From positions 1 through 64,000 of the forward strand of contig CAXTTL010000002.1 of the NCBI GenBank assembly GCA_964247135.1: a stretch of DNA of 64,000 nucleotides. The letters are read 5' to 3'. How positions within the stretch are numbered: the first letter of the stretch is position 1; each line of letters begins with the position of its first letter. Below are positions 14,024-48,174 of the stretch, one piece after another. Source of the DNA: an uncultured Deinococcales bacterium. Its GTDB lineage: Bacteria; Deinococcota; Deinococci; Deinococcales; JAAFIG01. The notes under the pieces are model-generated. The model worked only from the letters and a program-made list of their open reading frames with translations, did no database searches and had not been told where the DNA came from. Made by a program: the position numbers and the translations under genes.

Positions 14024-14040
14024 CGCCCAGTCTTTAAACT
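14010..14040 (+). promoter_or_regulatory. Putative SARP/BTAD operator plus -10 element (leaderless promoter)
   Basis: TAACGC-TGCAA-TAACGC (11-bp period), 8 nt, TAAACT, 7 nt, ATG 14048. Confidence 0.65.
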
Positions 14041-14047
14041 CCTATTC

Positions 14048-14245: not shown

Positions 14246-14267
14246 GATCAAGACACAAGGAGCAATC

Positions 14268-15554: not shown

Positions 15555-15586
15555 TTTAAGCTTGAATAAGCCACCCGAGGAGACGC

Positions 15587-18067: not shown

Positions 18068-18073
18068 AAACTT

Positions 18074-18116
18074 ACTCGAGCGTTCAGCTTGATTTGTGCG
18101 CTCGAGTTGGGTTTTC
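18074..18116 (+). terminator. Probable terminator hairpin
   Basis: ACTCGAGCG...CGCTCGAGT stem right after the stop codon. Confidence 0.45.
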
Positions 18117-18226
18117 AAATTCAGTTCAGGGGTTTCAAACTCGAGGTTGCTCGAGACGGGTTTTTACTGCCCAAATTTGCTTGCCCACTCGAGTCCCTGA
18201 CATTTTATCTTCTGGCGATTGGCGAC

Positions 18227-18257
18227 TAACGCTCCAATAACGCCTGCTGTGGATACT
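18227..18257 (+). promoter_or_regulatory. Second putative SARP/BTAD operator plus -10 element
   Basis: TAACGC-TCCAA-TAACGC, 8 nt, then GATACT with extended TG; 17 of 18 nt identical to the site at 14010. Confidence 0.65.
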
Positions 18258-18363
18258 GGTTTTAAGACAGACTGCATTTTGCAAACCCATCGCTGATTGG
18301 TCAATCTTCATCTGCCCTGTTCACCCACCCGAGAGACACTCGGGATGGACTTGGAGGTCTTGT

Positions 18364-19656
18364 ATGAAAAAGTTTGGATTGTTGGTCATTGGTTTGGCGT
18401 TTTCCTCGTTTCTGGTGGCTTGCCCTGGCGGTGGCACAACGCCGCCGCCACTGGTTGCCAACGGTTCGCTCGTTTCAGGCATCATTTCCAACTGGATTCC
18501 AGGCAAGGCAGGCACGTTGTACGCTCGAGTTTTCAACTTCTCGAGCAACCCAAGCACCAGTGCGGGTGTGCCGATTGCGGCAGATGGCTCGTTCAGCAAT
18601 TTGGTTTTGCCCACGCCCACCACAGCCGAACTTGGCAATAGCTCGAGTGGTTTGGGCGATTGCAGCGGAGGCACGGTCAGCGTGACCCCCAGCGATGGCA
18701 AAGCCGTTCTGGCTATTTTGACCAGCAACCTCAATTCGTCCTTGAGTGGTGCTGTCTATCAGGCGAATAAGTCCCAAGCCTCAGCTTTGTTTGTTGATCC
18801 TGGCAGCAACAGCACCTTGCGTATTTACGTCAGCAAAGACACGACCATCAACGGCACTTGCACCACCACCACAGGCACACCAAAGTACACGTACACCTAC
18901 AACAATGTCAGTCTGGCGCAAGGTTGGAATATTTTAAATGTCAGCGTCGCACCGCACGCTGTCAATTCCACAGACCCGATCCTCGAGACGTTCACCTCTG
19001 GGGCTGCCGCCAGCGACGTGAAGTTCTATCAAATCTTGCCTGAAACCACCAACATCACACAATCCCGCAGCGATTCTGCCAAGAAATTATTCCTAACCTG
19101 GGATGCCGTGCCAGATGCCACAGCATACAGCGTGGAAGTGAAATCGAACACGGCGGATTTGGGCAATGGCGTGGGCAATTACGGCAATCCGATCTCGGTT
19201 ACGGGTACATCAACCCTCGTTCCTGCCACCCCGAAAACAGATTATGTCGTGCGTGTCAAAACCAAGTTTGGTACGGTCATCAGCAACGGCGCAGAAAGCT
19301 TTGGGATCAGCAGCAGTACCCTCAACCCCAATGGGCTGAACATCCTCTTCCCAACCCAAGGCATTCCCCACGAAGAAACCATTGCCGCAGGGGCGAGCAA
19401 AGCCGTTAACCTCGAGTTTGAACGCGGTGCAAGCTGCACGCAAGCCCTGAGCTTAAGCGTTTCAGGAATTTCGGTGGGTGCTGCCTCGAGCAGCACGATC
19501 TCGGGGGTTTTTACCCCGAATAACAGCACGGGCAGCACCAGCAGCTTGGCGTTGACTGTTGGCTCGAGCGTTCCTGCTGGTTCGTACACGGTTGATTTGA
19601 ACGCCGATGGTTGTCCAACCAGCGTTGGTGTGTCCATGACTGTGACTGTTCTGTAA
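18364..19656 (+). CDS. Surface lipoprotein with FN3-like and Ig-like domains
   Basis: GGAGG SD, lipobox LVAC, FN3-like LTWDAVPDATAYSVE, and Ser/Thr-rich beta domains. Confidence 0.82.
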   Translation: MKKFGLLVIGLAFSSFLVACPGGGTTPPPLVANGSLVSGIISNWIPGKAGTLYARVFNFSSNPSTSAGVPIAADGSFSNLVLPTPTTAELGNSSSGLGDCSGGTVSVTPSDGKAVLAILTSNLNSSLSGAVYQANKSQASALFVDPGSNSTLRIYVSKDTTINGTCTTTTGTPKYTYTYNNVSLAQGWNILNVSVAPHAVNSTDPILETFTSGAAASDVKFYQILPETTNITQSRSDSAKKLFLTWDAVPDATAYSVEVKSNTADLGNGVGNYGNPISVTGTSTLVPATPKTDYVVRVKTKFGTVISNGAESFGISSSTLNPNGLNILFPTQGIPHEETIAAGASKAVNLEFERGASCTQALSLSVSGISVGAASSSTISGVFTPNNSTGSTSSLALTVGSSVPAGSYTVDLNADGCPTSVGVSMTVTVL

Positions 19657-28012: not shown

Positions 28013-29545
28013 ATGCCAGCGCAGTCGATGGACGAACTCGTTTCTCTTTGTAAACGCCGTGGGTTCATTTTCCCAGGCAGTGACATTTACGGTGGCTTGC
28101 AGGGGACGTATGATTACGGTCCTTTGGGAGTTGAGTTAAAGAACAACCTCAAAGCCGCCTGGTGGCGTTCGATGATTTACGAACGCGATGACATCGAAGG
28201 GCTTGACGCCAGCATTTTGACGCACAAGATGGTCTTGCGTCACAGCGGTCACGAGGCGACCTTCACCGACCCGATGGTGGACAACCGCACGAACAAAAAG
28301 CGTTACCGTCTTGATCACCTTTTAAAAGATCAAAAGCCCGAGATCATCTCGAGCATCGCGGCATCGTTTGGTTTTGAGGGTGAAGGTGTGGATGCCCTCT
28401 CGAGCGCCATGACCAAAAACCCTGAAAAAGCCGAAACTGCTTTAAACGCAGGCAAAGCGCTTGACCCTGACGATGGCAAACCAGGCAATTGGACTGCGCC
28501 GCGACCATTCAACATGATGTTCAAAACCACGGTTGGACCTGTGGCGGACGAAGAAAGTTACGCCTACCTGCGTCCCGAAACCGCGCAAGGCATTTTCACG
28601 AACTTCAAAAACGTTGTGGATTCAACCTCGAGACGCCTGCCATTCGGCATTGCGCAAATCGGCAAGTCATTTCGCAACGAAATCACGCCCCGCAACTTTA
28701 TTTTCCGCGTCCGCGAATTCGAGCAGATGGAACTCGAGTTTTTTGTGACCCCAGGCACGGACGACGAATGGCACGCCACCTGGGTCGAAACCCGTTTGCA
28801 ATGGTGGCGCGACCAGGGACTCGAGAGCAACAACCTCGAGCCTTACCATCAAAGCAAAGAAGACCTCTCGCATTACTCCAAAGCCACGGTGGACATTCTC
28901 TACCGTTTTCCACACGGACTCGAGGAACTTGAGGGCATTGCCAACCGCACCGATTTTGATTTGGGATCGCACACGCGCGGCAACGATTCGCTCGGGATTC
29001 AAGCCAACGTCGAACCGAACACCGACAGCACCGAAAAACTGACGATTCCGCACCCAGAAACCCAAAAACCGATTGTGCCGTTCGTGATCGAACCCTCGGC
29101 TGGCGTGGACCGTGGCGTGCTGGCGGTCTTGACCGAAGCGTTTACAAAAGAAACGCTCGAGAATGGTTCGGAACGCATCGTGCTCAAATTGCGCCCGCAC
29201 CTTGCGCCAATCAAAGTTGCCGTGATTCCACTCGCCAAGAACAAGCTCGAGATTACCGATGTGGCACGCAAACTGAAAAAAGATTTGCAAGCCATCGGCT
29301 TTGGGCGCGTGCTTTACGAAGACACGGGCAACATTGGTAAAGCCTACCGCCGTCACGACGAGGTTGGCACGCCGTTCTGTATCACCGTCGATTTTGACAC
29401 CATAGGACAGGGCAACAAGGACTCGAGCGAACCGAGTGACCCGAACTTGTTGGGCACGGTCACGGTGCGCAACCGTGATACGATGGCACAAGAACGCATT
29501 GCAATGAAAGAACTGCCAGCGTACTTGCTCGAGCGACTGCGCTAG
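28013..29545 (+). CDS. glyQS: Glycine--tRNA ligase (alpha2 type)
   Basis: [50 protein letters not shown] and [17 protein letters not shown] precedes ATG 28013. Confidence 0.96.
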
Positions 29546-29625
29546 ATTTTTCGAGTAACAATGGGGGTGAGCTTATCAATATTCCAGTCAGAACAGGTTT
29601 CTCCTGGGTTGGTGCGCTCATCCTT

Positions 29626-30060
29626 TTGTTGGTGGTTGGGCTTTTGGTGTTTGCTATTTTGCGGGTGATTTCAGATCAAAATGCAAAGCAATTTGCCATT
29701 CCGTTTTACGTGCTTTTGATGCTGTTTTTTGTCTTGTTGTTTACGCTGCCCCAACGGGCGCTCAAATACCGCCTCGAGAATCAAAAACTCGAGATTCGGT
29801 ATTGGTTTGGGCATCACGGGATCGATTTACAAAATGCAAAACCCGAGGTTATTCAAATCAAAACTGGATGGCGTTTTTTTGGTATCAGTACAGGTTTTTA
29901 CAATGCGGGTTTGTTCAGCGTGAACGGACAGCAGATGCGAGTTTACGGTTCTCTTTTGAACGGTGATGTGATTGTCATTCGTCAAGCTGGCAAAAATACG
30001 ATTATCACCCCAGCCGACCCGCAAGCCTTTTTGAAACTGGTTGAAGAATCTCGAGTTTAA
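29626..30060 (+). CDS. Bacterial PH-domain membrane protein
   Basis: Two TM segments, then WRFFG....YNAGLF...IITPADPQAF. The start is uncertain because the frame is open further upstream. Confidence 0.7.
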   Translation: MLVVGLLVFAILRVISDQNAKQFAIPFYVLLMLFFVLLFTLPQRALKYRLENQKLEIRYWFGHHGIDLQNAKPEVIQIKTGWRFFGISTGFYNAGLFSVNGQQMRVYGSLLNGDVIVIRQAGKNTIITPADPQAFLKLVEESRV

Positions 30061-30099
30061 AAAGTACGCCGTAAACACTTGAATGCAGTCATCACCAAT

Positions 30100-32121
30100 T
30101 CATGCGCTCGGGTTGCCCGAGTGCTGTAAAGGCAACGAAATTTTAATTTTCGTTCCCATCCCAATTTTGCTTTCAACCTCAAAATTCCCGCCAACACTCT
30201 CCACCCGTTCACGCATTCCCAACAAGCCCAAACCCTCAGATTGCTCGAGCGAGGCGTTCATTTCAAACCCAGTCCCCGCATCGCTGACCTCGAGTTGCAA
30301 TTGATTGTCCTGGCGAAAAAGATGCACTTTCTGCCCTCGTCCGCCAGCGTGTTTGAACGCGTTGGTCAGCGATTCTTGCACCAAACGGTAAAGCGTGATT
30401 TTGACTGGCAAGGGCAGTTCTTCGGGCGTCTCCTCGAGCACAAATTCGACACCTGTTTGCGAACGGCGTTTGTGGGCGTTAATCACCTTTAAGAGCGTTT
30501 CTTTTAACGACAATTGCTCGAGTTCGGGCAGGCACATGCCGCTGGCAATGGCTCGCATTTCAGCCAGCGCTCGAGCGATGGAGGCTTGAATCGTCTCGAG
30601 GTCTTTGTTTTGGGCGGCGTGAAGTTGATCGCTATCCAGTTTGAGGAGTGCAAACCCCAAATCTTGGGCTGGACCATCGTGAAGTTCGGCACTCAAACGC
30701 CGCAAGAATTTTTCGTTCAAGGTTGTACTGCGCGTGGCTGCCAGCACCAGACGGTTGCGCAAAAGCTCGTTTTGCTCGAGCAAGAATTGCAAGGTCACGA
30801 CTTTTTCTTGCAACTCTTGGCGTTGGTTTTCTATCGTTTGATTGCCAAGCTCGAGTTCTGCGGTGCGTTCTTTGACGGTTTGCTCGGCTTGCTCTTTGGC
30901 TTCGCGCTCAATCTCGGTTTTCAAGCGGTACACTTCGGTTTCGTGCTGCGCCCGCTCGAGGTCAAATTGAATCGAAAGTTGACGGGTTTTTTCTTCGCTT
31001 TCTTGGTTGAACAAGGTCTTTTCAACGCGGTGAAACTCGCGGAAATGCTGCAAGGCTTGATTGGTATCGCCCAGTCGTTCAAAGGCGTCTGCGAGCAATT
31101 CATGGGCTTCAAAAATCGCTTTCTTGCCCTCAATCTGCTCGGCTCGCTCGAGTGCCTTGCTTAAGGATTCAATCGCCTGAACTGCCTGAGATGTTTTCAA
31201 ATGCACCCGACCAATGTTCAAGAGCGTATCAATCTCGCTTTCAACATCGCCGATCTCGAGCGCACGGTCAAAAGCTTTTTGATGAAACTCGAGCGCGGTG
31301 GTGAGATTGCCCAAACCCAATTCGACCTGCCCGAGTCCGTCGAGTGCCGCGATTTCAAATTTTGGATACTTGATCTGTTGCGCCACCAACAGCACCACGT
31401 CAAAGCTTCTGGACGCATTCTCGAGTTGCCCAAGACGCTTGTAGACGTAACCCAGATTGGTTTTGGTGATTGCTTCGAGCACACTGTTTTCAAGACCTTC
31501 GAGGGTTGTTAACGCACGTTGGTATGTCTCGAGCGCTTTGGCGTCATCGGTCATGTTTTCATACAACAAACCAAGGTTGATTAAACATTGGCTCTCGATG
31601 CCGCGATCATGAATTCGTTCACGCACCAACGCATGGGCATCACTGAGGGCGGTCAATGCCCGAGGGAAATCACCAAGTTTAATGCAAATGATTCCCATGT
31701 TGATCAAGCAATTTGCTGCCCGACGGTCATCATTAAAACGACGGGCAACTATCAGGGCTTGAGTCAGGTCTTTGAGTGCTCGAGCGTACTCGCCATTTAG
31801 ATGGTTGACCCCAGCGCGTTGGTTGAGCGCATCGGCTTCAATCAGGGCATCACCATGAACTCGAGCCAATTCCAGGGCTAAGTCAAGACGCTCGAGGGCT
31901 GTTTCAGGATTGCCCTGGTCGCGGTATACCTTGCCTTGGGCAATCAACGCTTGCGCTTGGATGTTCCAAGCGTTTTCAAATTGGGCTTGCTGGGCGGTTT
32001 GCATCAATATTTGAAGGGCTTCTTGAAAATCTGAATGCCCATACGCTTCCAGCCCAGCCGCCAGCAAACTGGCTGAAGCCTCGAGCTTGGATTTTTGATC
32101 TGGAATCGTTTGTGTGCGCAT
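30100..32121 (-). CDS. Soluble TPR-repeat sensor histidine kinase (HisKA_3/NarX-like)
   Basis: N-terminal TPR array, H-box ELHDGPAQ, YRLVQESLTNAFKHA, DAGTGF and GLGLLGMRERV; no TM segment. Confidence 0.9.
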   Translation of the reverse strand: MRTQTIPDQKSKLEASASLLAAGLEAYGHSDFQEALQILMQTAQQAQFENAWNIQAQALIAQGKVYRDQGNPETALERLDLALELARVHGDALIEADALNQRAGVNHLNGEYARALKDLTQALIVARRFNDDRRAANCLINMGIICIKLGDFPRALTALSDAHALVRERIHDRGIESQCLINLGLLYENMTDDAKALETYQRALTTLEGLENSVLEAITKTNLGYVYKRLGQLENASRSFDVVLLVAQQIKYPKFEIAALDGLGQVELGLGNLTTALEFHQKAFDRALEIGDVESEIDTLLNIGRVHLKTSQAVQAIESLSKALERAEQIEGKKAIFEAHELLADAFERLGDTNQALQHFREFHRVEKTLFNQESEEKTRQLSIQFDLERAQHETEVYRLKTEIEREAKEQAEQTVKERTAELELGNQTIENQRQELQEKVVTLQFLLEQNELLRNRLVLAATRSTTLNEKFLRRLSAELHDGPAQDLGFALLKLDSDQLHAAQNKDLETIQASIARALAEMRAIASGMCLPELEQLSLKETLLKVINAHKRRSQTGVEFVLEETPEELPLPVKITLYRLVQESLTNAFKHAGGRGQKVHLFRQDNQLQLEVSDAGTGFEMNASLEQSEGLGLLGMRERVESVGGNFEVESKIGMGTKIKISLPLQHSGNPSA

Positions 32122-32195
32122 GATGGTCGTATCCGAAGAATAGTGCCTTTTCGATACGACCACCTTAACCGATCAGGCTCGAGTTGAAATGAGGC

Positions 32196-33605
32196 TTAAG
32201 GGACAACCGCTTTTAAAAAATTGAGAATGTCCAATCTTCCATCGCCAAGCATCAGCACGGAAGTGGTGGGCGAATCAATTTTGTATGCCGCATTTTGGTT
32301 GGATTTGTAAATGTTAACCGTTGTGCCTTTGAGTATTTTGGTCAGGTCAATCGAATTGGCTTTCAGGCTTTGCCCCAATGCCAGAGCCAAACTGGCGGAC
32401 ACCATCGGCGCGGACATGGACGTGCCAGACCAAGCGCCCAGCCTGTTGCCAGGCACAGGACCAAAGACTTCCTCACCTGGGGCGGACACCTCGAGCGTCG
32501 CGCCAAAGTTTGAAAATACTGACTTGTTGTCGTTTGCATCCACACTGCCCACACTCAGGCTGAACTGACCACCAAGGGTGGTGTCGAGGTTGGCTTGGTT
32601 GGCAGGAAACGTCACGTTTTGGTTGTTGGTGTTGCCGCTCGAGGAAATCACAAAAATCCCCCGCAAAGTCGCGGCATCAATCGCATCGTTGACAGCCTGC
32701 GAATTCGTGTCACTGCCCAAACTGAGGTTGATGATGTTTGCCCCCGCCTGCATGGCGCGGTTGATGGCTGCCGCCACATTTAACACATCGCCGCTGCCAT
32801 CTGGACCCAGCACCCGCAGGGGCAAGATTTTGGCTTTTGGCGCAATTTGCAAAATAATACCCGCCACGCTTGTTCCGTGACCAAACGCCGCATCCGCTCC
32901 AAGAATACCCTCTTCTTGTGGCACGGCATCGTTGTCAACGTAATCCCACATTTCCGAAGCTGGGGCAAGTGAACCCGAGAAGGCTGGATGTTGCAAATCA
33001 ATACCACTGTCAATCACAGCCACTTCGATGCCAGCACCAAGATTGCTCGCCAAGGTCTGTGCCTGTTGTAAATTTAATTTTTGCCATTTTGTGGTGTTTT
33101 GTGGAACCAATGAGAAATTCCCACCTGCCCAAGCGGCGATACTGCCCCCAGCCCATGCCGCGATGCTCCCCCCAGCCCAAGCCGCAATGCTACCGCTCAT
33201 CGTTGCCAGTTGCCCAGCGCCTAAAAAGACTTTTTTGTTCGACTCGAGCGTTGCCTCGCCTGCCCCACCCGAAGCCGCGAGTTGATCGCCAGTGGCTTTG
33301 TCGAGTGCCAAGATCGCAAATTTTTCGTCGGGTCGCCAGACCACAACCTTGCCGCCGTATGTGGTCTCGGTCTGGACGATGGTGTCTTTTTTATCGATTT
33401 TGACGGTCAAACTGTAATGGCTGTCCGTGGCAGGCACCACCACTGGCGGCGAAACGGGTTCGGTTGGCGGTGGTGTGGTCACTGGGGGCGTGACGGGCGG
33501 TGTAACAGCAGGTTGGATCGCAACCTCATTGCAAGCCACCATGCAAAGCAAACCCAGCGCAAACAGGGCGGTTTTGAGTTGTGATGGTGGCAATTTAAAG
33601 TTCAT
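32196..33605 (-). CDS. S8 subtilisin-like serine protease lipoprotein
   Basis: Lipobox MVAC; catalytic triad VIDSG / GHGTSVAG / SGTSMSAP. Confidence 0.92.
   Translation of the reverse strand: MNFKLPPSQLKTALFALGLLCMVACNEVAIQPAVTPPVTPPVTTPPPTEPVSPPVVVPATDSHYSLTVKIDKKDTIVQTETTYGGKVVVWRPDEKFAILALDKATGDQLAASGGAGEATLESNKKVFLGAGQLATMSGSIAAWAGGSIAAWAGGSIAAWAGGNFSLVPQNTTKWQKLNLQQAQTLASNLGAGIEVAVIDSGIDLQHPAFSGSLAPASEMWDYVDNDAVPQEEGILGADAAFGHGTSVAGIILQIAPKAKILPLRVLGPDGSGDVLNVAAAINRAMQAGANIINLSLGSDTNSQAVNDAIDAATLRGIFVISSSGNTNNQNVTFPANQANLDTTLGGQFSLSVGSVDANDNKSVFSNFGATLEVSAPGEEVFGPVPGNRLGAWSGTSMSAPMVSASLALALGQSLKANSIDLTKILKGTTVNIYKSNQNAAYKIDSPTTSVLMLGDGRLDILNFLKAVVP
33121..33194 (-). repeat. Three tandem 24-bp units encoding SIAAWAGG
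   Basis: AGC ATT GCG GCT TGG GCT GGG GGG / AGC ATC GCG GCA TGG GCT GGG GGC / AGT ATC GCC GCT TGG GCA GGT GGG. Confidence 0.9.
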
Positions 33606-33643
33606 GTCCCAATGATCTTAGAACAAGTTTTGATTCTTGAACA

Positions 33644-33657
33644 CCGACTTTGGTCGG
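33644..33657. promoter_or_regulatory. Palindromic operator upstream of the subtilase-kinase pair
   Basis: CCGAC-TTTG-GTCGG, upstream of a TAAGAT -10 (33615-33620, minus strand). Confidence 0.5.
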
Positions 33658-33663
33658 AAAACA

Positions 33664-33691
33664 AAAGCTCGAGCCTGGATGCTCGAGCTTT
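33664..33691 (-). terminator. Intrinsic terminator after the aldehyde dehydrogenase
   Basis: AAAGCTCGAGC-CTGGAT-GCTCGAGCTTT. Confidence 0.7.
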
Positions 33692-33708
33692 AAAGGTTTT
33701 TGAAGGCT

Positions 33709-35214
33709 TTACTGATCGCCAAAAATCGTGAAATGCCAACCTTTTCGCGCATCGCCCGAAGTGTCGAACATGATGTGCTTGGGAATGGTGTACTCCTCGA
33801 GCGCGTAATGGCTTAAATCCTTGCCCACACCCGAATCTTTCATGCCGCCCGTCGGCATTTCGGAGGTCAATGGCAGGTGGTCATTCACCCAGACCGTGCC
33901 AAACTCGAGCGCACTCGAGACTCGGAAGGCACGTTGAATGTCTTTGGTCCAGACGCTGGCTGCCAGTCCGTAAATCGTGTCGTTCGCCAGTTCTATCGCC
34001 TCGGCTTCGTCTTTAAAACTGTTCACCACCACCACGGGTCCAAAAATTTCTTCTTGCACCACGCTCGAGTCTTGCGGGGCGTTCACCAGAATCGTTGGCG
34101 GGTAGTAAAACCCAGGTCCTTTGGGCAGTTCGCCGCCGAGTTCAACCTTGATTTTTTGTTTTTTGGCTGTCAGCACCATGCCGTGGACTTTCTCGAGGTG
34201 AACCTGGCTGGTCAGCGGTCCCATGTCGGTGCTTTCAGACTCGAGTTTCCCCATTCGGATGCTGCTGGTCACGGCTTTAAAGCGTTTTAAGAACTTGTCA
34301 AAACTTTTTTGTTGCACATAAATTCTTGCCGCCTGCGTACAGTCTTGACCCGCGTTGACGAACGCGCCCGCCACCGCGCCCTGCACCGCCGCCTCGAGGT
34401 CGGCATCGTCGAAAACAATAAACGGCGCTTTGCCCCCAAGCTCGAGCGTCACGCGTTTTGTGCCGAGTCCCGCCAGTTCGCCGATGCGTCTGCCCGTGCG
34501 GGTGCTGCCCGTGAACGTCACCATGCGCACGTTTTTGTGTGTGACCATCGCCTCGCCAACTTCGGCGCCGCCCGTCAGCACATTGATCAAACCTGCTGGC
34601 AAGCCTGCCTCGAGTGCAATTCTTGCCATTTCGATGGTACTGCATGGCGTGTTTGGCGCGGGTTTGATGACCACCGCATTGCCCGCCGCCAGCGCAGGAC
34701 CCAACTTCCAAGCCGCCATCATGAACGGATAATTCCAAGGCGTGATCGCCGCGACCACACCCACCGGCACGCGTTCGATCATGCTCGAGTAACCGCCCAT
34801 GTACGACCCCGCGCCCACGCCCTCAATGCGCCGCAGCACGCCCGCAAAATACCGAATGTTATCAATCGCCACGGGAATGTCGCTGTACTTTGCCAGTTTG
34901 ATCGGTTTACCCGCATTTTCACTCTCGAGCTTCGCCAGTTGTTCGCTGTGCTGCTCGAGTGCATCGGCAAATTTCAATAAGGCGTTGCTGCGCTCGCTCA
35001 GGGAGAGCGCAGCCCAAATTTTCTGGGCTTTGCTGGCTGCCTTGACCGCTTCTTGCACGTCTTTGACCGTGGCAACTGCAACGGTGGCGAAGACTTCACC
35101 CGTGGCTGGCGCGATCAAATCTTGAGTACCATGCGTGACTTCTTTTCCGTCAATGATGAGCGGAAAGTGCCTGAGACTCGAGTTTTTTGCGGTTTTCTTG
35201 GCTACTTTGGTCAT
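33709..35214 (-). CDS. NAD-dependent aldehyde dehydrogenase (aminobutyraldehyde dehydrogenase-like)
   Basis: ITPWNYP, FTGS, LELGGKAP, NAGQDCT, EEIFGPV and EMPTGGMKDSGVGKDLS; AAAGGAG SD; downstream of gabT. Confidence 0.88.
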   Translation of the reverse strand: MTKVAKKTAKNSSLRHFPLIIDGKEVTHGTQDLIAPATGEVFATVAVATVKDVQEAVKAASKAQKIWAALSLSERSNALLKFADALEQHSEQLAKLESENAGKPIKLAKYSDIPVAIDNIRYFAGVLRRIEGVGAGSYMGGYSSMIERVPVGVVAAITPWNYPFMMAAWKLGPALAAGNAVVIKPAPNTPCSTIEMARIALEAGLPAGLINVLTGGAEVGEAMVTHKNVRMVTFTGSTRTGRRIGELAGLGTKRVTLELGGKAPFIVFDDADLEAAVQGAVAGAFVNAGQDCTQAARIYVQQKSFDKFLKRFKAVTSSIRMGKLESESTDMGPLTSQVHLEKVHGMVLTAKKQKIKVELGGELPKGPGFYYPPTILVNAPQDSSVVQEEIFGPVVVVNSFKDEAEAIELANDTIYGLAASVWTKDIQRAFRVSSALEFGTVWVNDHLPLTSEMPTGGMKDSGVGKDLSHYALEEYTIPKHIMFDTSGDARKGWHFTIFGDQ

Positions 35215-35387
35215 GAACAAACTCCTTTCGTGGAAACTCGAGCTGCTAAGTTTCTCTGCTCTCATCCCCAACCCTTCTCTCGATATCCAGAGAAGGGAGT
35301 CTAATGCCGATCATTAATGAATTAAATTGGGTTTTAACAGTTCAACATGCTTTGATTCATCGGTGTCTATCAAGTGTTTTCGGTTTT

Positions 35388-36866: not shown

Positions 36867-37856
36867 TTACTTGACGTTGGTTTCCCAAGTCCAAGCGGCG
36901 GTGCAAGAAACCGAAGTCGTGCGGACATAACCGCCCGCATCGTCGGAGAATTGTACGTTGCCACCGTCAATTTTTTCGTCCTGACCCGAACAGGCGACAT
37001 CGTTGCGATGCACATTGACCGCCAACTTAAAGGTTTTATTGGCTTGAAATCTTTTGCCTGTGTTGTCCGTCAGGTTGTATGCAAAGGTAAAGCTCGAGCT
37101 GGATTCGACGGTGCCCTGACCGTTAAATGGTTTCAAATTGTCGTTTGGCGTGTATTTCAGGCTCGAGCTGAAACCCACCGTGAGGAATTCGGGTTTGGTA
37201 TCGTCGGGTTTGAGGGTGATCGAAAAACCTTCAGAAGCTGCATATGGTGGTGTATCTGATTTTAGATTGAGGTCAAGGTCCAAAATAATCGAAGTTTTGA
37301 AAGTTGTGCTTTGCGGGTTGACATCCAAAGCTTTTAATTTTTTGATATGCACTTCGTAAGGACCATCGCCGTTGGAATTGTCTTTAACCGTGATCGTTCC
37401 TGTGGTCTGAACACCACCCGATAAACAGTCATAAGCGTAATTGACAATCGAATCAGGAATGCCATCTGCATCGGCGTCGGCTTGGTTCGCATCTTGCCCA
37501 CAACTCGAGCCGGTACCCGTCGCTTGCGTGGTCTGAACCCGACCAGATTTCAAGTTTTGCAAGCTTGCACTCAAACTTGAGGTCAGCAAGTTTGAGGCAT
37601 TGGTTTTGGCGAGGATGCTGGCAACGTCTGGGGCGAACGCTCGAGCGAAAACGGTGGGGAGTTTTGTGAGCGGCTCGAGGTTGATTGGAGAGGAATTTAC
37701 ACCAACACCGACACCACCAATTCTTTGGATGCTTGCATCAACCACACTCGGCGCAACGCTGGTGAGCGCGTTGGTATCGTCAGTGGTTAATTTTTGCCCG
37801 CAAGAAACCAGCAATCCCAAAACTGAAATACTCAAAATAAATCCACTTAATTTCAT
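36867..37856 (-). CDS. Hypothetical lipoprotein
   Basis: GGAGG SD, lipobox LVSC, a DADADGIPD Ca-binding-like loop and a beta-rich C-terminus. Confidence 0.8.
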   Translation of the reverse strand: MKLSGFILSISVLGLLVSCGQKLTTDDTNALTSVAPSVVDASIQRIGGVGVGVNSSPINLEPLTKLPTVFARAFAPDVASILAKTNASNLLTSSLSASLQNLKSGRVQTTQATGTGSSCGQDANQADADADGIPDSIVNYAYDCLSGGVQTTGTITVKDNSNGDGPYEVHIKKLKALDVNPQSTTFKTSIILDLDLNLKSDTPPYAASEGFSITLKPDDTKPEFLTVGFSSSLKYTPNDNLKPFNGQGTVESSSSFTFAYNLTDNTGKRFQANKTFKLAVNVHRNDVACSGQDEKIDGGNVQFSDDAGGYVRTTSVSCTAAWTWETNVK

Positions 37857-37951
37857 GAGTTTGAACCTCCCGATAACGACACGCTCAACAGTTTAGCAAG
37901 GTCATTCAAAAAACATCGTTCTGGGAGTCAAGACAATGTCCAGAAAAGGAT

Positions 37952-40900
37952 TTAGTCCTGTTCAATCAATGACAGGGCAACATCTCGAGCCAGAATGCCA
38001 ATTGCCGAAGCTTGGTGCTGTTTGACTAAAATTGACAGTTGCTCGCGTCTTTGTTGGTCCCAATTACCTTCAAAGACCAAGGCTGCAAAATCCTTGTACT
38101 CGGTTGCCAATTCGGAAGTGAGTATCACGTCATAATTGCTTGGTGGTTGTAAAACAAACTCGAGCATTTCAGGGGTATGTTTACCCAATCGCCAAGCGGC
38201 ATGAAGATGGGAGAGTGCCCAAAACCAATCGTTTTTTGGTGTTTGTGTCAACTTAAAAGCTTTTTCGTAATCGCCAAATGAAAGTGCGTACTGAACTTGA
38301 AGTAAATTTTCCAAATCCTCACCAATAGAAATATCAATCAGTGGTAACTGTGCCACAAAACCATCGCCGAGTTCAAGCGTAATACGTGTAATCCATCCTT
38401 GCGCAAGCGACTCGAGTTGATGGTCATGAATTTGCTCGAGTTGTGTTCTGGCTTGCTCAAGTTGACCGAGAGCATACTCGCAAATCGCAGCATTGAAAAC
38501 GGCGTATGATTGATAATTGATTAATCCACTGCGTTTTATGAATGCAAGTGAACGATCAAGACGTAATTTTGCAGTTATGAAATTGCCATTATTCATTTCG
38601 AGCAAGGCAATATTGATTCCAATAATAATTTCTATTCTAACATCACCGATTTTTTCGGCAAAAGCCACAGCCTTTTCCCAAGCAGAGGCTGTTTCGGGAA
38701 TACGGTGTTGTCCATGAAACGTAAGACCTAGATCATTCCAGACGCTGGCGAGCAAATGACTATTTTGTGATTGTTCAGCAAGCTGAATCGCCAACTTCAG
38801 CAAATATTCCGAACGTTGCAAACGCCCTTGTTCACGTTCAAGTCCTGCCAACCCTGAAATCGCCAATGCCTGCCCAACAAAATCTTTTGCTTGCTTGGAA
38901 GCCCTGAGCGCCTCGAGTCCAGCATGTTTTGCCAACCTCACATCCTGCCGCTCTCGCAAAATCGCGCTTTGCTCGAGACACAATGGGGCATAGGCGGGTT
39001 CTTCGCGTTTGGGTTCGCCCACCAGTCGCAGTGCCTCATCCAAAGAGCCGCGCAAGCGCAAGGCTTTGGCGACGCTGACCCGAGCGTTCAGTGAGGCTTC
39101 CAATCCTCCCTCGAGCAATTCGGCGCTGTCCATCACGGTTTTCCACAAGGTTATGGCTTCAAGGTTGCGTCCCATGAACGATAAAACTTCTGCCAGTTGA
39201 TGCCGCACTTTCATGGTTTCCAGGCGCTCACCCTCGAGTTTTTCGCTGGCAGTTAACGCCATGCGGTAGGCGCGTTCGGCTTGCGGGTAGGCGAACGCAT
39301 GTTGCGCTGCCAAACCTGCTTCCAAACCTTTTTGCAGGGTTTGTTCAAACATGCCAGCCTCGAGGTAATGTTCGGTCAACTCGAGCGGTGCGGCGCGGGT
39401 TTCGAGCAGTGCGGCGGCTTTGGCGTGCAGGCGACGGCGTTTGAGGCTCATCAAGCCAAGCGCCAGCAGTTCGGCGTAACTGGGGTGCGTGAACCTGAAA
39501 CCCTCGCCGTTCGTGCCTGGGGTTTCGATCATCAGTTTGGCGCGTACCAGCGTCTCGAGCGCGTCGAGGGCGGCGTCATCTGACCAGTCCAGCAGCGCTC
39601 GGGCGTCTTCAAACAAAAACGCGCGACCCAAAACGCTGGCGGCTCGGGCAAACTCGAGGGCAGGTTGTGGCAGCGCGCTGATGCGGTGGCTGAGCAGGTC
39701 GTTTAAGGTTTCGGGCAAGCCGGTCAGGTTTCGATTCCATTCGTAGACGCCAGCACGCCTGTAGACCGCACCCGATTCGAGCATGGCTTTCAGGCGTTCC
39801 TCGAGCACCCAGGGGTTGCCGCCAGCGCGTGAGACGAGTTCAACTTCCAGTGCTGGGTCAAGTTCATCGTCCATTAGCGCCCGCAGCAACTCGAGCGTCA
39901 AGGGTTCGGACAGTGGCTCGAGGTGAACAATACGTTTTGGATTTAAGCCTTTGGGGTGCGTGGTGTTTTCGGGCAGGTCTTCGAGGCGGTACGAGATCAT
40001 CATTTTTGTATTCTCGAGGGCGCGAGTGCTGTGTGCCAGCAATTCAAGGGTGCTCGAGTCTGCCCAGTGCAGGTTTTCAAACGCCAGGATCGAGGTTTGA
40101 GAAATGTTCTCGAGCAATTCGGTGAAAGCTTCAAACAGTTTTAACCGCGCCACCTCGGGCGGCAAATTGCTGTCGCTGGCGGGCACAAAACCCAATTTGC
40201 TCGAGATGCGACCAAGTTCGCCTTTGGCGTTGTCAGACAGGTTCTCGAGCACCTCAGAATGGTGTTTTCCCAGGCTGGCGATCAACCTCGAGATCGTGCC
40301 AAACGGTGTGGGGTCATCAACGATGGCTTCGGCAATCACCAAGCGTTTTCCGTTCCCTTGAAGCCTTTCGCCCAGAGCTTTGAGCAACCTGGTTTTGCCC
40401 ACGCCAACATCGCCTGTCACGGCAATCAAACCCGTTTCAGACTCGAGGAAGGCATTTAAAACAGCCATTTCGGTGTCGCGTCCAACCAGTGGCGCAATCA
40501 AAATCGCGTCGGCTCGAGCAATTTCACTCGAGATTTCCACGGTGTTTTGAAGGTTTGCTTCCAGCGAGGCGAGCAAGGCTTCTTTGACGGCGAAGGCGCT
40601 CTGCGGACGGTCGAGCGGATTTTTTGCCAGCATCTGCAGCACCAGCGCGTTTAAGCTTTCGGGCACGTTCGGGTTGACATCTTTTGGGGCTGGGGGCGTG
40701 CCTTGAATGTGCTGCATGATGACCTGCACGATGCCCTCGCCCGTGAAGGGTGGTCGCCCCGTCAAGGCACTAAAGAGCACCGCTCCAAGGGCGTACAAAT
40801 CGGCGCGGTAATCGAGTTGCTGCCCTCGGCATTGTTCGGGAGCCATGTACAAGACCGTGCCGACCACCGCGCCCTCCCTGGTCAGTGCCACGCTGCCCTC

Positions 40901-41359
40901 GAGCGTTTTTGCCAGTCCAAAATCCATCAGTTTGGCGTTGCCGCTTTCGGTGACACGAATGTTTTCGGGTTTTAAATCGCGGTGCACAATGCCTTGCGCA
41001 TGAACCGCCGAGAGGGCGCTGGCAACGCCCGCAAAGACCTGAATCAGTTTCTCGAGTGGTGGATTGTCTTTGAGCCAATCGTTTAAGTCTGTGCCGCGCA
41101 CGAATTCCATGATTAAAAAAGGAATCGCGTTTTCTTCGCCCAAACCCAGCACTTTCACCACGTTTTCGTGTTCGATCCGCTCGAGCGATTTGAACTCGCG
41201 CCGCAAACGCACGCCGCCCTGTAAAGCCACGGCTTCGTGCAGGCGTTTGACCGCCACAAACTGCCCTGTGTCTTTGTCCAGCGCCAGACTGACACGACCC
41301 ATTGCGCCAGAGCCTAGCTCTCGGACAAATTGGTAGCGTTGGCTCGAGGAGACGGACAT
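37952..41359 (-). CDS. Hanks-type Ser/Thr kinase fused to AAA/STAND-like ATPase and TPR domains
   Basis: LGSGAMGRV, VAVK, HRDLKPEN, MDFGLAK and GTVLYMAPEQ; LVGRD and Walker A GDVGVGKT; ENLHWAD; TPR tail. Confidence 0.9.
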   Translation of the reverse strand: MSVSSSQRYQFVRELGSGAMGRVSLALDKDTGQFVAVKRLHEAVALQGGVRLRREFKSLERIEHENVVKVLGLGEENAIPFLIMEFVRGTDLNDWLKDNPPLEKLIQVFAGVASALSAVHAQGIVHRDLKPENIRVTESGNAKLMDFGLAKTLEGSVALTREGAVVGTVLYMAPEQCRGQQLDYRADLYALGAVLFSALTGRPPFTGEGIVQVIMQHIQGTPPAPKDVNPNVPESLNALVLQMLAKNPLDRPQSAFAVKEALLASLEANLQNTVEISSEIARADAILIAPLVGRDTEMAVLNAFLESETGLIAVTGDVGVGKTRLLKALGERLQGNGKRLVIAEAIVDDPTPFGTISRLIASLGKHHSEVLENLSDNAKGELGRISSKLGFVPASDSNLPPEVARLKLFEAFTELLENISQTSILAFENLHWADSSTLELLAHSTRALENTKMMISYRLEDLPENTTHPKGLNPKRIVHLEPLSEPLTLELLRALMDDELDPALEVELVSRAGGNPWVLEERLKAMLESGAVYRRAGVYEWNRNLTGLPETLNDLLSHRISALPQPALEFARAASVLGRAFLFEDARALLDWSDDAALDALETLVRAKLMIETPGTNGEGFRFTHPSYAELLALGLMSLKRRRLHAKAAALLETRAAPLELTEHYLEAGMFEQTLQKGLEAGLAAQHAFAYPQAERAYRMALTASEKLEGERLETMKVRHQLAEVLSFMGRNLEAITLWKTVMDSAELLEGGLEASLNARVSVAKALRLRGSLDEALRLVGEPKREEPAYAPLCLEQSAILRERQDVRLAKHAGLEALRASKQAKDFVGQALAISGLAGLEREQGRLQRSEYLLKLAIQLAEQSQNSHLLASVWNDLGLTFHGQHRIPETASAWEKAVAFAEKIGDVRIEIIIGINIALLEMNNGNFITAKLRLDRSLAFIKRSGLINYQSYAVFNAAICEYALGQLEQARTQLEQIHDHQLESLAQGWITRITLELGDGFVAQLPLIDISIGEDLENLLQVQYALSFGDYEKAFKLTQTPKNDWFWALSHLHAAWRLGKHTPEMLEFVLQPPSNYDVILTSELATEYKDFAALVFEGNWDQQRREQLSILVKQHQASAIGILARDVALSLIEQD

Positions 41360-42290: not shown

Positions 42291-45200
42291 GTGATCAGCC
42301 GTGAAGAAGCTCAGAAAAGACTTGCCGATACTCGAGTCAAAAATCCAAACGTTGTTTTGGCAGGGCGCATCCAAACTTTGCCCGAGCACTTAACGCAAAT
42401 CACGCTCGATTACTTGTGCTTAGACGCCAACGGCGACGAGCCAAAGTTCTCTGATTACCAAGCCCGCAACAAGTTCGATGAAGCCGCCAAGAGCGCCTTT
42501 TTTCAAACCTCGAGCGACGATTTTGCCTTGATTCTCGAGACGTGGTTTCCGCGCTTTCCCAAGGTGGCGCTGTCAGCCTTGCAAGCCCCTGTCACCTACC
42601 GTTTTCGCAGCAGCGTCATGCCCAGTTTGACCTCGCAATTCGAGACCGCCAAAGGCTGGTTGGCGTACACCCGCGCTTACGATCAGCCGCTCGAGTGGAT
42701 GACCGAGTACGCGGGTTACGAATGGGCTTTTCAGTATTACACCATGCCGCTGTTCTTGGCGGCGGTGGATTCTGGCAACGATGCCGTGTTTGAAATCATG
42801 CTCGCAGCCGCCAAAAGCGAACATCCTGTGGCGGTCATGGGCGACTACGTGATCGACACTTTAATGCGTTCCAATCGACCCGAGGGTTGGGATTTGCTCG
42901 AGAAACTGCTGCTCGCCGCGCAGCGTCAGGAGGGTTTACGGCAGAGCATTTTCAATAAAATCATGATCGCTCACCCAACGGCTTTAAAACGAATGATACA
43001 TTTGATTCTGGACAACGACCTGCTGCGGTTTTCCTCGAGCGTGCAATGGGCGATTTCATTCCTGCCACTCGCGCCAATCGAACCCACGCCCAAAGTTTTA
43101 GAAGATGCGGTTCGGGATTTTTTGACGCGGCTCGAGCATCAAGATGCAAGTCGCGCGATTGTTAAAAATTTGAAAGGCACACCAGATTGCCGCGATTTGT
43201 ACTTGGCGTTGTACGTGCTGGCAGTCGAAAATCTCGAGGAAGCCCAAAGTTTGGGTTTGCTATGGCTCAAGCACAAAGACGCCAAGTACCGTTTTGTGGC
43301 GCTGCATGTGTTGCAACGTTTTGATCTTGCCACCCACCCAGATGTGATCGCGTTGTTGTCCGACAAGGACGACATGGTGGCACTCAAAACGCGTTCTTTT
43401 GTGATCTTGCCTCGTGAAACACCCGAACAAGCACTGGCTTCGTTTCAAACCCTGAAAAAGTTTCTCGAGCGTTTCCCTGCCAAGCTCGAGTTGAAAAGCC
43501 CAGAACTTTGGATGGGTGCTGTCGCAACTGACCCAAGCGACATTGCGGGGCAGATGTTTGACTTTGTCAATAACGAAAATGCGCGTTTGATGATGCCCTA
43601 CAAGCACTTGTTAAACCCTTGGACGTTGCGCAGCCTGATGGATAAACTCACCGAACAAAAGCCGTGGGATTTTGAGGTTCGTGGCATGGTGATCGAGGCT
43701 TTGACCGCCAAAGACAATTACTTGCGCGAACGGGCTTTTGTCACCATGAAGGAAAGCAAAGCCGCGCTTGAGGAAAGCGATTTTGTTGCGCTCGAGAAGC
43801 AGTTAAGTCGTAAAACCGCATCGGTGCGCAAAGACACGATTGAACTGATTTTGGCGCAACCAGCCGAATTCGCTAGCGCCAGCGCAACCCGTTTAAAAGC
43901 CGCCAAAACCCCCGAGCAGAAAAAAGCGGGTGAAGAAATCGCCAAAGCGCTCGAGAGTGTCCGACTCGAGCAAAACGTACCAAGTGCGGCGGACGGCTTT
44001 GGATTGTTCGACCCCAACAAGCGCAGTCCAGCCTTTAAGCTTGAGCGCAAAAATGTTCAACTCGTCACGCCCGCCGCACTGGCGGTTTTGGGATCGCTCG
44101 AGAAACTGGTTTGGCAGCACCGTTTGACCGTGGTGGACGAGATCAATTGGAGCAATGAGGTTTCGCAAAAACCGTTTGAAAACACCTGGTTGCGTGCTCC
44201 GAGCTTTCACGACACCGAAAATCCGTTGCTCGAGCAGTGGAAGAAATTCCCGTTGTCTGAAACTTGGACGGCATGGTTTGAAAACCGCACGACAAAAGAG
44301 CGCGACACTGATGGACTCGAGATTTTACGTGCCATTGCGATTCGACCTTTTATGTTTCAATCCATCTTTAACGATGATTACTACGATGAAAATTTCAATT
44401 ACGACCTCGAGCCTGACAATGACGACGCTGGCACAAGCAATTTGGGTTTGCAAAAAAGCTATTTTGGCAGTTTAAGACCCGTCAAACGCAAAGACGAAGA
44501 TCAACGCCTCGAGAACAACATGGTGCAGATTTTGTACTGGCTCAAAGAGTTGTATCCAGCCGTGGGTGAGCACGATTTCGCGCTCGACTTGCTCGAGGAT
44601 CAACTCGCACAAAGCATTCCTCTTCTCGAGCAAGGTTTTCAAAAATTCGTCGAGAAAAATACGTTGCTGCCCGACGAAGTGGCGCTGAGGGAAAACAAGG
44701 ACTATCAAACCTTTAAAAAATTACTTCCCGTCATCGTCAAACTCCAACCCAGCGCTGCCGCCTTGACCAGCGCTCAACAGGCTCGAGCGTGGCAACTCGA
44801 GCACAGCATGAGTTTGCGGCTGTGGTGGAATGGCAGCCGCACAATCAACCACTCGCATCTGATGGCGGCGTTCAGGGCGGGTATTGCGAATCAAACTGAT
44901 GTGATGGAGGCTTTGATCGGTCCGAGTCATTTGCGTCCCAGCAAAAATGTCGTTTGCAACAATGGTTTCACCGACCACCTAACACAAAAACCATCAGAAT
45001 TCCTCAAAACATATCCAGAACTTCAACCCATGCTCGAGCAGTGCGCCGACCGTGTGCTCGAGATTGAATTGCAACGCGGGGATTTGCCAACGCCAGCCAC
45101 GATTGCGGCAACCCGAATTCGGTTTTTGTCGGGTTTGGGACGTTTAATGCCGATTCTCGAGGTGATCGGGCAGGACAATATTTCGCGTGGTGCTGGGTAC

Positions 45201-47159: not shown

Positions 47160-47205
47160 AACTGAAAGTCAAACCTCGAGCATCAATCCGTTTTAAGATG
47201 CTTGA

Positions 47206-48174
47206 GTGCAAGACCTTTTAACCCGATTTCAAGCCGGTGACGAACGTGCCCTGGCTCGAGCCATCACCATTGTCGAATCGGGTGATCCTCGAGCCGATGA
47301 ATTGCTGGCGGCATTGCGGGGTTTGAACCGTTCTGCCGTGGTGATTGGCATGACGGGCGCCCCTGGTGCGGGCAAGAGCACCCTGACCGACCAGTTGATT
47401 GCGGTGTGCCGCGCCAGAAACGAACGGGTTGCGGTGCTTGCCATCGATCCGTCCAGCCCATTTTCTGGCGGCGCGATTCTGGGTGATCGAATTCGTATGG
47501 GGCGGCATTACCAGGACCGTGGCGTGTTCGTGCGGTCTATGGCAACCAGGGGCGCATTGGGTGGGCTGGCAAAGGCAACCGTGGGTGTCTTGTCGGTGCT
47601 CGAGGCGTTCGGTTTTGACCGTGTGATTCTCGAGACGGTGGGGGTTGGTCAATCCGAGATTGACATTGCGCGGGTTGCCGATCACACGGTGCTGGTGCTC
47701 ACGCCAGCGGGTGGAGATGCGGTGCAGGCATTCAAGGCGGGCATCATGGAAATCGCCGATGTTTTCGCGGTCAACAAAGCCGACATTCCTGGGGCGGATA
47801 GGTTGGTGCGTGAAATTCAGGCGGCGCTCGAGTTCAACCCTCACGATGAATTCTCGTGGTGGGCAAAAATTGTGAAAACCATTGCCAGCACGGGGCAGGG
47901 TATTTCCGAATTGCTCGAGGCTATCGACGCGCACCGCGTACATCTTGGCGAGGCTGGCTTGCAAACCCGCAGGCTCGAGCGTGCCAGGTTCGAGATCATC
48001 AATGCCATCAACGACGAGGTGCGCGGCATCATGAAGCAATCCGAACGCGAGCTTTTGCTGCGCGTCTCGAGTGGTGAAAGCACGGCGAATGTGGTCGCTC
48101 GAGAATTGATTGCCGCTGCCCTCGAGAAATCGGGTTCGTATGGCACGACTCGAGTGCACATTGTTGACGAATAA
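47206..48174 (+). CDS. meaB: Methylmalonyl-CoA mutase-associated GTPase MeaB
   Basis: LARAITIVE, GAPGAGKST, DPSSPFSGGAILGDRIRM, ETVGVGQSE, KAGIMEIAD and NKAD. Confidence 0.93.
   Translation: MQDLLTRFQAGDERALARAITIVESGDPRADELLAALRGLNRSAVVIGMTGAPGAGKSTLTDQLIAVCRARNERVAVLAIDPSSPFSGGAILGDRIRMGRHYQDRGVFVRSMATRGALGGLAKATVGVLSVLEAFGFDRVILETVGVGQSEIDIARVADHTVLVLTPAGGDAVQAFKAGIMEIADVFAVNKADIPGADRLVREIQAALEFNPHDEFSWWAKIVKTIASTGQGISELLEAIDAHRVHLGEAGLQTRRLERARFEIINAINDEVRGIMKQSERELLLRVSSGESTANVVARELIAAALEKSGSYGTTRVHIVDE

Follow-up and report, generated by a model that had tools for sequence, protein, structure and literature searches.

Why does a predicted subtilase carry the same eight residues three times in a row, and does this repetition concern the sensor kinase encoded directly behind it? 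The question is raised by a locus on contig CAXTTL010000002.1 of an uncultured Deinococcales bacterium (assembly GCA_964247135.1), of which positions 1 to 64,000, hereafter the window, were analyzed. A 469-aa S8 subtilase, a putative lipoprotein, is encoded by an open reading frame (ORF) at 32196-33605 on the minus strand, and a histidine kinase with a tetratricopeptide repeat (TPR) input domain follows it on the same strand (ORF 30100-32163). A preliminary description of the locus had read the protease as both precursor and maturase of a signal peptide read by the TPR kinase. The protease-TPR pair, the junction position of the repeats and purifying selection on them speak for this reading; its exclusivity and its likeness to RRNPP receptors were not upheld. 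The protease and the TPR transducer form a genuine and apparently undescribed two-gene cassette.

The protease was assigned by its sequence to Peptidase S8. The Pfam model (PF00082) matched aa 190-417 with 135 bits (cut-off 21.8), and thermitase and subtilisin were matched at E 1e-31. The Asp-His-Ser triad and the oxyanion Asn, i.e., D199, H243, S396 and N325, were invariant in a 46-sequence alignment. The N-terminus is hydrophobic with a V-A-C motif, lipobox-like by eye, and Cys25 was nearly invariant (at least 90% of the 46 sequences), so the protein is a putative lipid-anchored lipoprotein. In the AlphaFold2 model, built on the 46-sequence alignment, the catalytic domain was predicted confidently, and a prodomain was predicted with a block-mean predicted local distance difference test (pLDDT) value of about 85-97 over aa 51-130. 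Its elements are strands 64-69, 86-91, 96-101 and 118-122 and helices 76-83 and 103-111. The best PDB match to the whole model in Foldseek was unautoprocessed pro-subtilisin E (3whi; 417 columns, target-normalised template-modelling (TM) score 0.82), and pro-Tk-subtilisin was a further top match spanning both domains. In Pfam, Inhibitor_I9 was unmatched and the N-terminal domain gave no match of any kind. NCBIfam gave no specific family for the protease or the TPR kinase, all matches being far below cut-off.

The three SIAAWAGG units lie between these two domains. Tandem Repeats Finder reported a period of 24, 3.0 copies and an 81% nucleotide match. Seven of the 24 nucleotide columns vary among the units, and every change is synonymous; adjacent units differ at 9 synonymous and no nonsynonymous positions. 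The identity of the three units and their synonymous-only differences, as first described, were reproduced by both comparisons, and the selection suspected on the peptide can be specified as purifying selection on each unit. In the model, pLDDT fell below 50 at aa 136 and stayed there to aa 164, between the confident prodomain and the catalytic domain, although low pLDDT is no proof of disorder. Query residue 175 pairs with residue 16 of mature thermitase, and by ungapped extension A160, which follows immediately on Trp159 of the third unit, would be mature residue 1. Because of this extrapolation, each unit looks like a copy of the junction, i.e., a hydrophobic P4, small P3 and P2, Trp at P1 and then A-G-G. 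Such sites, including Trp at P1, are acceptable to subtilisins. From the model, the units are expected outside the mature fold, in a linker at the pro/mature junction that is predicted to be disordered. The placement at the prodomain/catalytic junction proposed earlier agrees with the pLDDT profile, the thermitase alignment and the pro-subtilisin E match. The contrary possibility raised at that time, that the repeats remain a structural part of the mature protease, is not what the model and the junction position predict.

Relatives carry similar units at the same place. At least two x4-W-x-G-G units were found about 45 residues before the catalytic Asp in 111 of the best 120 homologues, and in several of the others variants like W-A-S-G or W-A-E-G take their place. 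When one genome per species was scanned, 77 loci were obtained (numbered L001 onwards), and all 45 loci with full-length relatives belong to Deinococcota, i.e., Deinococcales, Trueperaceae, Deinococcus, and Meiothermus/Thermaceae. Most close relatives of the protease are known only as metagenome proteins. A repeat chain, defined as at least two Trp at a 7- or 8-residue period, was present in 46 of 52 Deinococcota S8 genes versus 1 of 33 S8 genes of other phyla. A profile of prodomain plus repeat recovered 250 cluster representatives among 1.84 billion, 156 of them at E of 1e-10 or lower. All 149 proteins read from this search carry the Trp chain in 2-10 copies, with period 7 in 118 and period 8 in 31. 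One match, P0165 with 19 copies, was set aside as a false match with an eukaryote-like, unrelated repeat. The Trp of the units is invariant in the 46-sequence alignment. Judged by these sequences, tandem Trp-centred units of 7-8 residues appear to be a hallmark of a Deinococcota S8 clade. In a Meiothermus metagenome-assembled genome (L021, 5845-15338), five S8 paralogues stand in a row with three to five Trp-rich heptads each, two Trp per unit, and no TPR gene was found in the locus.

The units are identical or nearly so within one protein and differ between proteins, e.g., SIAAW, SVSAW, RSSAW, RISMW, and GVRAW. In several Deinococcus proteins, one B unit stands between two identical A units, an A-B-A arrangement. 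Among 29 arrays with exact amino-acid repeats, 28 diverge in nucleotides between copies. Adjacent units pooled over 45 arrays gave proportions of synonymous and nonsynonymous differences (pS and pN) of 0.56 and 0.16, values at which the synonymous sites between units are saturated. This silent-site divergence together with peptide identity implies that the copies are old, yet kept alike as peptides. Unit sequence and even period switch between close orthologues; the period is 8 in the window and 7 in L005 (73% identity), a change that requires turnover of whole units. Such a pattern would be expected of interchangeable units meeting one binding site and not of a structural repeat. With tandem identical units, each bounded by a candidate processing site, the protein has the sequence make-up of a multi-copy peptide precursor.

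Although the kinase ORF opens with GTG, translation more likely starts at a conserved ATG (32121), 74 nt from the protease stop codon. Pfam found seven TPR_12 stretches and a HATPase_c domain (52 bits). HisKA_3 scored 22.3 bits, just below the cut-off of 24, and 24.5-29.4 bits, above it, in the orthologues of L002, L003, and L005. DesK and VraS were the best PDB matches to the kinase core, and an HDGPAQ H-box can be read in the translation. With this H-box dimerisation domain and HATPase_c, the protein is assigned by sequence to the HisKA_3 histidine kinases. As its highest 19-residue hydropathy is 1.22, no transmembrane segment is predicted, and by hydropathy all 31 TPR proteins of the compared loci likewise lack one and are predicted to be soluble. 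The TPR helices, from residue 23 to 364, were predicted with pLDDT mostly above 90 and lead into a signalling helix of about 105 residues. A soluble kinase with TPR input about 75 nt downstream of the protease, as noted at the outset, is what these analyses found.

The neighbourhood of the two genes is conserved. When S8 proteins below 565 aa are taken as short forms and longer ones as long-form paralogues, 25 of 36 evaluable Deinococcota short-form genes are followed directly, on their own strand, by a TPR homologue at a distance of -25 to 173 nt. Another two of the 36 have a nearby TPR homologue in another arrangement, and none of 32 evaluable S8 genes of other phyla has one downstream. At 29 TPR-bearing loci, S8 is present in 27, TPR in 28 and the next commonest family in 4; S8 and TPR are the only neighbours conserved across them. 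Cultured, non-pathogenic Deinococcus species carry the cassette, among them D. aquaticus, D. psychrotolerans, and D. gobiensis, and the pair occurs in all six annotated Deinococcus megaplasmid loci, where the genes are annotated merely as "S8 family serine peptidase" and "HD domain-containing phosphohydrolase" or "tetratricopeptide repeat" proteins.

Across cassettes, the TPR domain is kept while the output fused to it differs. The output is HisKA_3 plus HATPase in the window, L001, L002, L003, and L005, HD_5 of the HD-GYP type at most loci, HD_5 plus GGDEF at five loci and GGDEF alone at six. With a fixed input, a fixed neighbour and swappable outputs, the protease should relate to what the TPR domain senses and not to what the protein controls, which marks the TPR domain as the likely link to the protease. 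That the two genes are functionally coupled is considered very probable. Each of five genomes carries two cassettes with differing units. At L020 (7989-13462), two TPR-HD genes in tandem stand behind one protease with two unit types, two copies each; at no other locus seen do unit types and sensors match in number. In L002 (2518-3942) and L003 (6334-7773), a second HisKA_3 kinase of about 475 aa was found just upstream of the protease, which makes the order kinase, S8, TPR-kinase, regulator. Its hydrophobic N-terminus may be membrane-spanning, and this kinase shares 46-50% identity with the catalytic part of the window kinase.

The region upstream of the protease gene was compared among the kinase-type cassettes. 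An aldehyde dehydrogenase gene (Pfam Aldedh; 33709-35271, minus strand) precedes the cassette and is ended by a terminator-like hairpin, which marks the upstream edge of the cassette; the subtilase gene starts about 60 nt past it. The preliminary description had pointed to a palindrome upstream of the promoter. Its 5-bp arm alone is at chance level in the intergenic region, and the part that stands is the GAC-N4-GTC core, which is kept upstream of five kinase-type cassettes even where the flanks no longer align. L002 and L003 have two sites each, one of them a perfect palindrome with 6-bp arms. Within 250 nt upstream of S8, the core was found in 5 of 5 kinase-type cassettes (7 sites) versus 2 of 40 other Deinococcota S8 genes, at a background of 0.055 sites per 250 nt. 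The sequence comparison supports a core specific to kinase-type cassettes. NarL-type regulators (REC plus GerE) adjoin the kinase in L001, L002, and L003, and none is adjacent in L005. Given the core motif and these adjacent regulators in relatives, it is reasonable to consider feedback through the palindrome by a putative unlinked regulator in this genome. As a -10-like TAAGAT ends 9 nt short of the ATG, the protease transcript may be leaderless or nearly so; a simple sigma-70 scan called no promoter at this conserved block.

A predicted RNA stem-loop occupies the space between the two genes. Its minimum free energy is -24 kcal/mol for the 86-nt spacer (z -2.2), AAGGTGG in its 5' arm is Shine-Dalgarno-like, and the structure is conserved in L001 and L005, where the stem is kept partly via G-U pairs. 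As no T run follows, read-through into the kinase is likely, and the stem-loop may set the translation ratio of protease to sensor. Rfam gave no match within 29500-34500. The features of the cassette are collected in the table.

Table. Features of the protease-TPR kinase cassette and its flanks in the window (kinase residues in GTG numbering).
Feature	Position	Strand	Basis or note
Terminator-like hairpin and T run	33664..33691	(-)	11-bp stem, 6 G-C pairs, then TGTTTT
Inverted repeat CCGAC-N4-GTCGG, core GAC-N4-GTC	33644..33657	(-)	Candidate NarL-type operator abutting the -35 region
Promoter-proximal block, -10-like TAAGAT (33615-33620)	33606..33643	(-)	Near-invariant in window, L001, L005
Putative signal peptide and lipobox, aa 1-25, Cys25	33531..33605	(-)	Sequence by eye; C25 conservation
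Pro/Thr-rich tether, aa 26-58	33432..33530	(-)	Sequence; low pLDDT
Subtilisin-type prodomain, aa 59-136	33198..33431	(-)	Predicted beta-alpha-beta-beta-alpha-beta order; Foldseek match
Three tandem SIAAWAGG units, aa 139-162	33120..33191	(-)	Candidate serial autoprocessing sites and octapeptide source
Catalytic subtilase domain, aa 163-469, and stop codon	32196..33119	(-)	Pfam, alignment, pLDDT
RNA stem-loop between protease stop and kinase ATG	32122..32164	(-)	12-bp stem; AAGGTGG in 5' arm
TPR sensor domain, 18 helices, about nine TPR motifs	31072..32097	(-)	Pfam; predicted structure
Signalling helix linking TPR domain to kinase core, aa 367-473	30745..31065	(-)	Single predicted helix
HisKA_3 dimerisation/phosphoacceptor and HATPase_c catalytic domains	30100..30702	(-)	Pfam; VraS/DesK matches; HDGPAQ H-box

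The best explanation, offered tentatively and short of being called probable, is a two-gene cassette with a peptide-signal mechanism of six steps. It starts from direct observations, i.e., the conserved order of the genes, where the repeats lie and how they evolve, the swap of output domains and the operator motif. First, the pre-pro-enzyme would be exported and lipid-anchored by the N-terminus of its prodomain. Second, prodomain and catalytic domain would be connected by a disordered linker that consists of the pro/mature junction in tandem copies. Third, autoprocessing at the units, inferred from their sequence, would free the enzyme from the anchored prodomain and release n-1 identical octapeptides; the window gene would yield two, probably AGGSIAAW, the frame being uncertain. 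With the anchor on the prodomain side, cleavage would also release the enzyme from the membrane. That the repeats are excised junction sites is probable. Fourth, and speculatively, the octapeptide would be re-imported. Fifth, equally speculatively, it would bind in the TPR groove, and the long signalling helix would set the activity of the fused output, here the HisKA_3 kinase and in most relatives an HD-GYP and/or GGDEF enzyme. Sixth, in kinase-type cassettes, a NarL-type regulator, adjacent in relatives and placed elsewhere in this genome, would close the loop at the GAC-N4-GTC operator beside the promoter. The identity of the unit peptide as ligand of the TPR domain is doubtful, though possible. 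A complex prediction of TPR aa 20-445 with the repeats (aa 128-168) reached 0.02 against a mark of 0.32, with the controls unrun, and speaks neither for nor against binding. On a Deinococcus psychrotolerans plasmid (L078, 96-3547), an ABC transporter, i.e., a substrate-binding protein and two permeases, and an Xaa-Pro peptidase lie just upstream of an S8/TPR-HD cassette, with an IclR regulator in between; at this one locus, the transporter could be a candidate peptide importer.

Several observations weigh against the peptide-signal mechanism. The cleavage position comes by homology alone, from the thermitase alignment. The repeats are present in all 13 long-form paralogues, and none of the 11 evaluable ones has a downstream TPR gene (two have a TPR-GGDEF gene upstream); no TPR gene adjoins 9 of the 36 evaluable short forms either. 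The linkage of repeats to TPR signalling genes, proposed earlier as a check, holds for the 25 short forms and not for these. Because the repeats occur without a TPR neighbour, they are first of all a feature of the protease clade, and their primary role may lie in protease maturation or localisation. In the window, no peptide importer was found by a Pfam survey, and no response regulator by the same survey and tblastn with the regulators of three relatives; the absence of an adjacent regulator, already noticed before, thus extends over the 64 kb. The operator motif was defined on the same five loci in which it was later counted, and the window, L001, and L005 are close relatives. RNPP_C had no match in the window TPR protein at E of 0.01 or lower, the only score among relatives being 25.0 bits in the neighbour of L027 (cut-off 26.5), and no RRNPP receptor was among the approximately 35 best Foldseek matches listed for the TPR domain. 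Co-variation of unit and TPR domain had been proposed as a check, and peptide distance did follow TPR distance (Mantel r 0.60; multiple regression on distance matrices beta 0.69, p 0.001), being uncorrelated with catalytic-domain or prodomain distance. However, TPR distance predicts prodomain (beta 0.61) and catalytic-domain (beta 0.58) distances equally well. As it is the best predictor of these two as well, it may simply be the best clock, and the test does not separate co-evolution from shared history. The co-variation signal failed these controls for specificity and was dropped as support.

Another explanation is possible if not favored, namely that the repeats serve zymogen control only, as a spacer, timer or decoy for prodomain release, while the TPR domain senses something else and the protease is a co-expressed output or accessory. 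It accommodates the clade-wide repeats, including those of degradative long forms that have ricin-lectin or SpaA-like C-termini and lack a TPR neighbour, and the unspecific co-variation, and TPR-GGDEF and TPR-HD-GYP proteins are in any case generic transducers. It explains less well why a chain is needed, since one junction suffices for other subtilases and the chain is nearly confined to Deinococcota among the S8 genes compared, and identity at all eight positions despite saturated synonymous sites exceeds what P4-P2' would need. An output gene is unlikely to stay fixed while the transducer output swaps among kinase, phosphodiesterase, and cyclase. Period-8 units also accompany TPR linkage, with 17 of 23 TPR-linked arrays versus 1 of 22 unlinked ones in a hand count of arrays that are not phylogenetically independent.

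A tether function, in which the Trp-rich units remain attached to the mature enzyme or the anchored prodomain and bind envelope, membrane or glycan, is improbable. A further point that tells against the signal peptide is in its favor, i.e., P0208, an 898-aa S8 protease with about 40 Trp-centred heptads C-terminal to the catalytic domain; its N-terminal part is ordinary, and the heptad region has no Pfam match. The carbohydrate-binding modules on long forms fit a tether too, as does the caution that low pLDDT proves no disorder. Structural or binding repeats, however, usually diverge outside key positions, whereas these are identical within and different between proteins. The units fall where homology places the mature N-terminus, the binding surface offered by three to five eight-residue units is small, and the TPR linkage would be left unexplained.

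Borosin and BURP-domain precursors are known for identical tandem cores fused to an enzyme. By analogy, the units might be cores of a ribosomally synthesised and post-translationally modified peptide (RiPP), e.g., Trp cross-linked, released from the protease, and the window TPR region does match the RiPP TPR protein HaaT weakly (76 bits, cut-off 1125). This is very improbable, as the cassette is flanked in the window by aldehyde dehydrogenase, aminotransferase, bPH protein and glycyl-tRNA synthetase (GlyRS) genes with no modifying enzyme adjacent, and none is conserved among the 29 loci. A chance or slippage-generated low-complexity tract without function would agree with the variable copy number among relatives (2-10), but conservation across a phylum-wide clade with an invariant Trp, the purely synonymous differences in the window array and the nucleotide divergence between units, which argues against recent slippage, leave it a negligible probability.

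The peptide-signal mechanism was compared with known systems. Like the RRNPP(A) systems (Rap-Phr, NprR, PlcR, PrgX, AimR), the cassette combines a predicted cytoplasmic TPR protein with a neighbouring gene that carries the peptide, and the candidate unit of 7-8 residues falls within the 5-10 residues of RRNPP peptides. Those systems belong to Bacillota and not Deinococcota, their peptide comes from a small propeptide ORF and not from a protease linker, and their TPR domain is joined to a helix-turn-helix or phosphatase function and not to a histidine kinase, HD-GYP or GGDEF domain. In the 74-nt and approximately 100-nt intergenic spaces here, only short ORFs overlapping the terminator or genes were found, none with a signal-peptide-like start. 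With neither RNPP_C homology nor an RRNPP fold among the structural matches listed, membership in the RRNPP family is not supported by the sequence. Several peptide copies in some precursors and several cassettes with different peptides per genome are further likenesses. The account in PMC11343458 describes Phr pheromones that are duplicated in tandem and matured by extracellular proteases, with subtilisin, Epr, and Vpr as producers of CSF identified in work cited there.

The protease itself resembles the subtilisin and thermitase pro-enzymes with an I9-type prodomain in triad, fold and, in the model, the order of prodomain elements. Those enzymes have one junction, whereas 2-10 near-identical tandem copies stand here in a predicted disordered linker; the prodomain here is predicted to be lipid-anchored, so that cleavage would detach the enzyme, and escapes the Inhibitor_I9 model. 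Enterococcal sex pheromones are cut from lipoprotein signal peptides, and GmSubPep is reportedly a defence signal embedded in a soybean subtilase. Both share with the proposed peptide a short signal inside a precursor with another job, and in GmSubPep the carrier is a subtilase as well. They are single-copy, do not lie at an autoprocessing junction and have receptors of other kinds, and we know of no conserved protease-receptor gene pair for either.

Among the matches listed, the closest solved folds to the TPR domain were those of LGN/Pins (3sf4, 4wnd, 3ro2; E about 1e-14, target-normalised TM score up to 0.80), which led the TPR matches by sequence as well. In the listed entries they are in complex with Inscuteable, NuMA, Frmpd4, and Afadin, partners that bind as extended peptides in the inner TPR groove. 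LGN/Pins are eukaryotic scaffold proteins with about 20-22% identity, and such resemblance is typical of TPR superhelices and says nothing on the ligand. With HisKA_3/NarL systems, i.e., DesK-DesR, VraS-VraR, LiaS-LiaR, and NarX-NarL, the cassette shares the kinase core, the REC plus GerE regulators adjacent in L001-L003 and an upstream inverted repeat as candidate operator. It differs in that the kinase is predicted to be soluble, with TPR input in place of membrane sensing, and in that the window kinase is an orphan within the 64 kb. No description of the cassette or of tandem junction repeats in subtilases was found in the literature searched, most subscription journals being outside its scope.

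Other gene groups were recorded in the window. At 36867-41359, a 329-aa protein comes after a 1135-aa Ser/Thr kinase that has AAA_16 and TPR regions, and both are conserved in L005; the 329-aa protein has no Pfam match and is lipoprotein-like by eye, with a hydrophobic N-terminus ending in Cys. A 1622-aa DUF5724-DUF4132-DUF7737 protein precedes a MeaB-like GTPase (42291-48174), and a BTAD-domain protein (668 aa) precedes three large proteins of 439, 826, and 430 aa without Pfam match (12017-19656). A Macro-domain protein overlaps the end of a DUF7009-Barstar fusion protein (5812-6925), which may be a toxin-immunity-like or ADP-ribose-related pair. A PP2C phosphatase directly follows a Ser/Thr kinase with NHL repeats (55315-58154).

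Signalling by peptides through cytoplasmic TPR receptors is, to our knowledge, considered particular to Bacillota and their phages. Should the peptide be no signal, two findings would still be new, a phylum-wide protease-sensor gene pair and a subtilase clade with 2-10 junction copies under selection for identical units. If it is a signal, cytoplasmic TPR peptide signalling would extend to another phylum, and peptide sensing would be linked directly to the turnover of cyclic di-GMP (c-di-GMP). Precursor and maturase would be one polypeptide, and the signal would report the amount of active protease made. On the widest reading, which is rather unlikely as a whole, Deinococcota would own a form of peptide signalling, either cell-cell or self-monitoring, in which a tandem pheromone in the pro/mature linker of a lipid-anchored subtilase is set free as that enzyme activates itself and is read by cytoplasmic TPR receptors wired directly to phosphorelay or c-di-GMP enzymes, with GAC-N4-GTC feedback in the kinase type and orthogonal cassettes coexisting.

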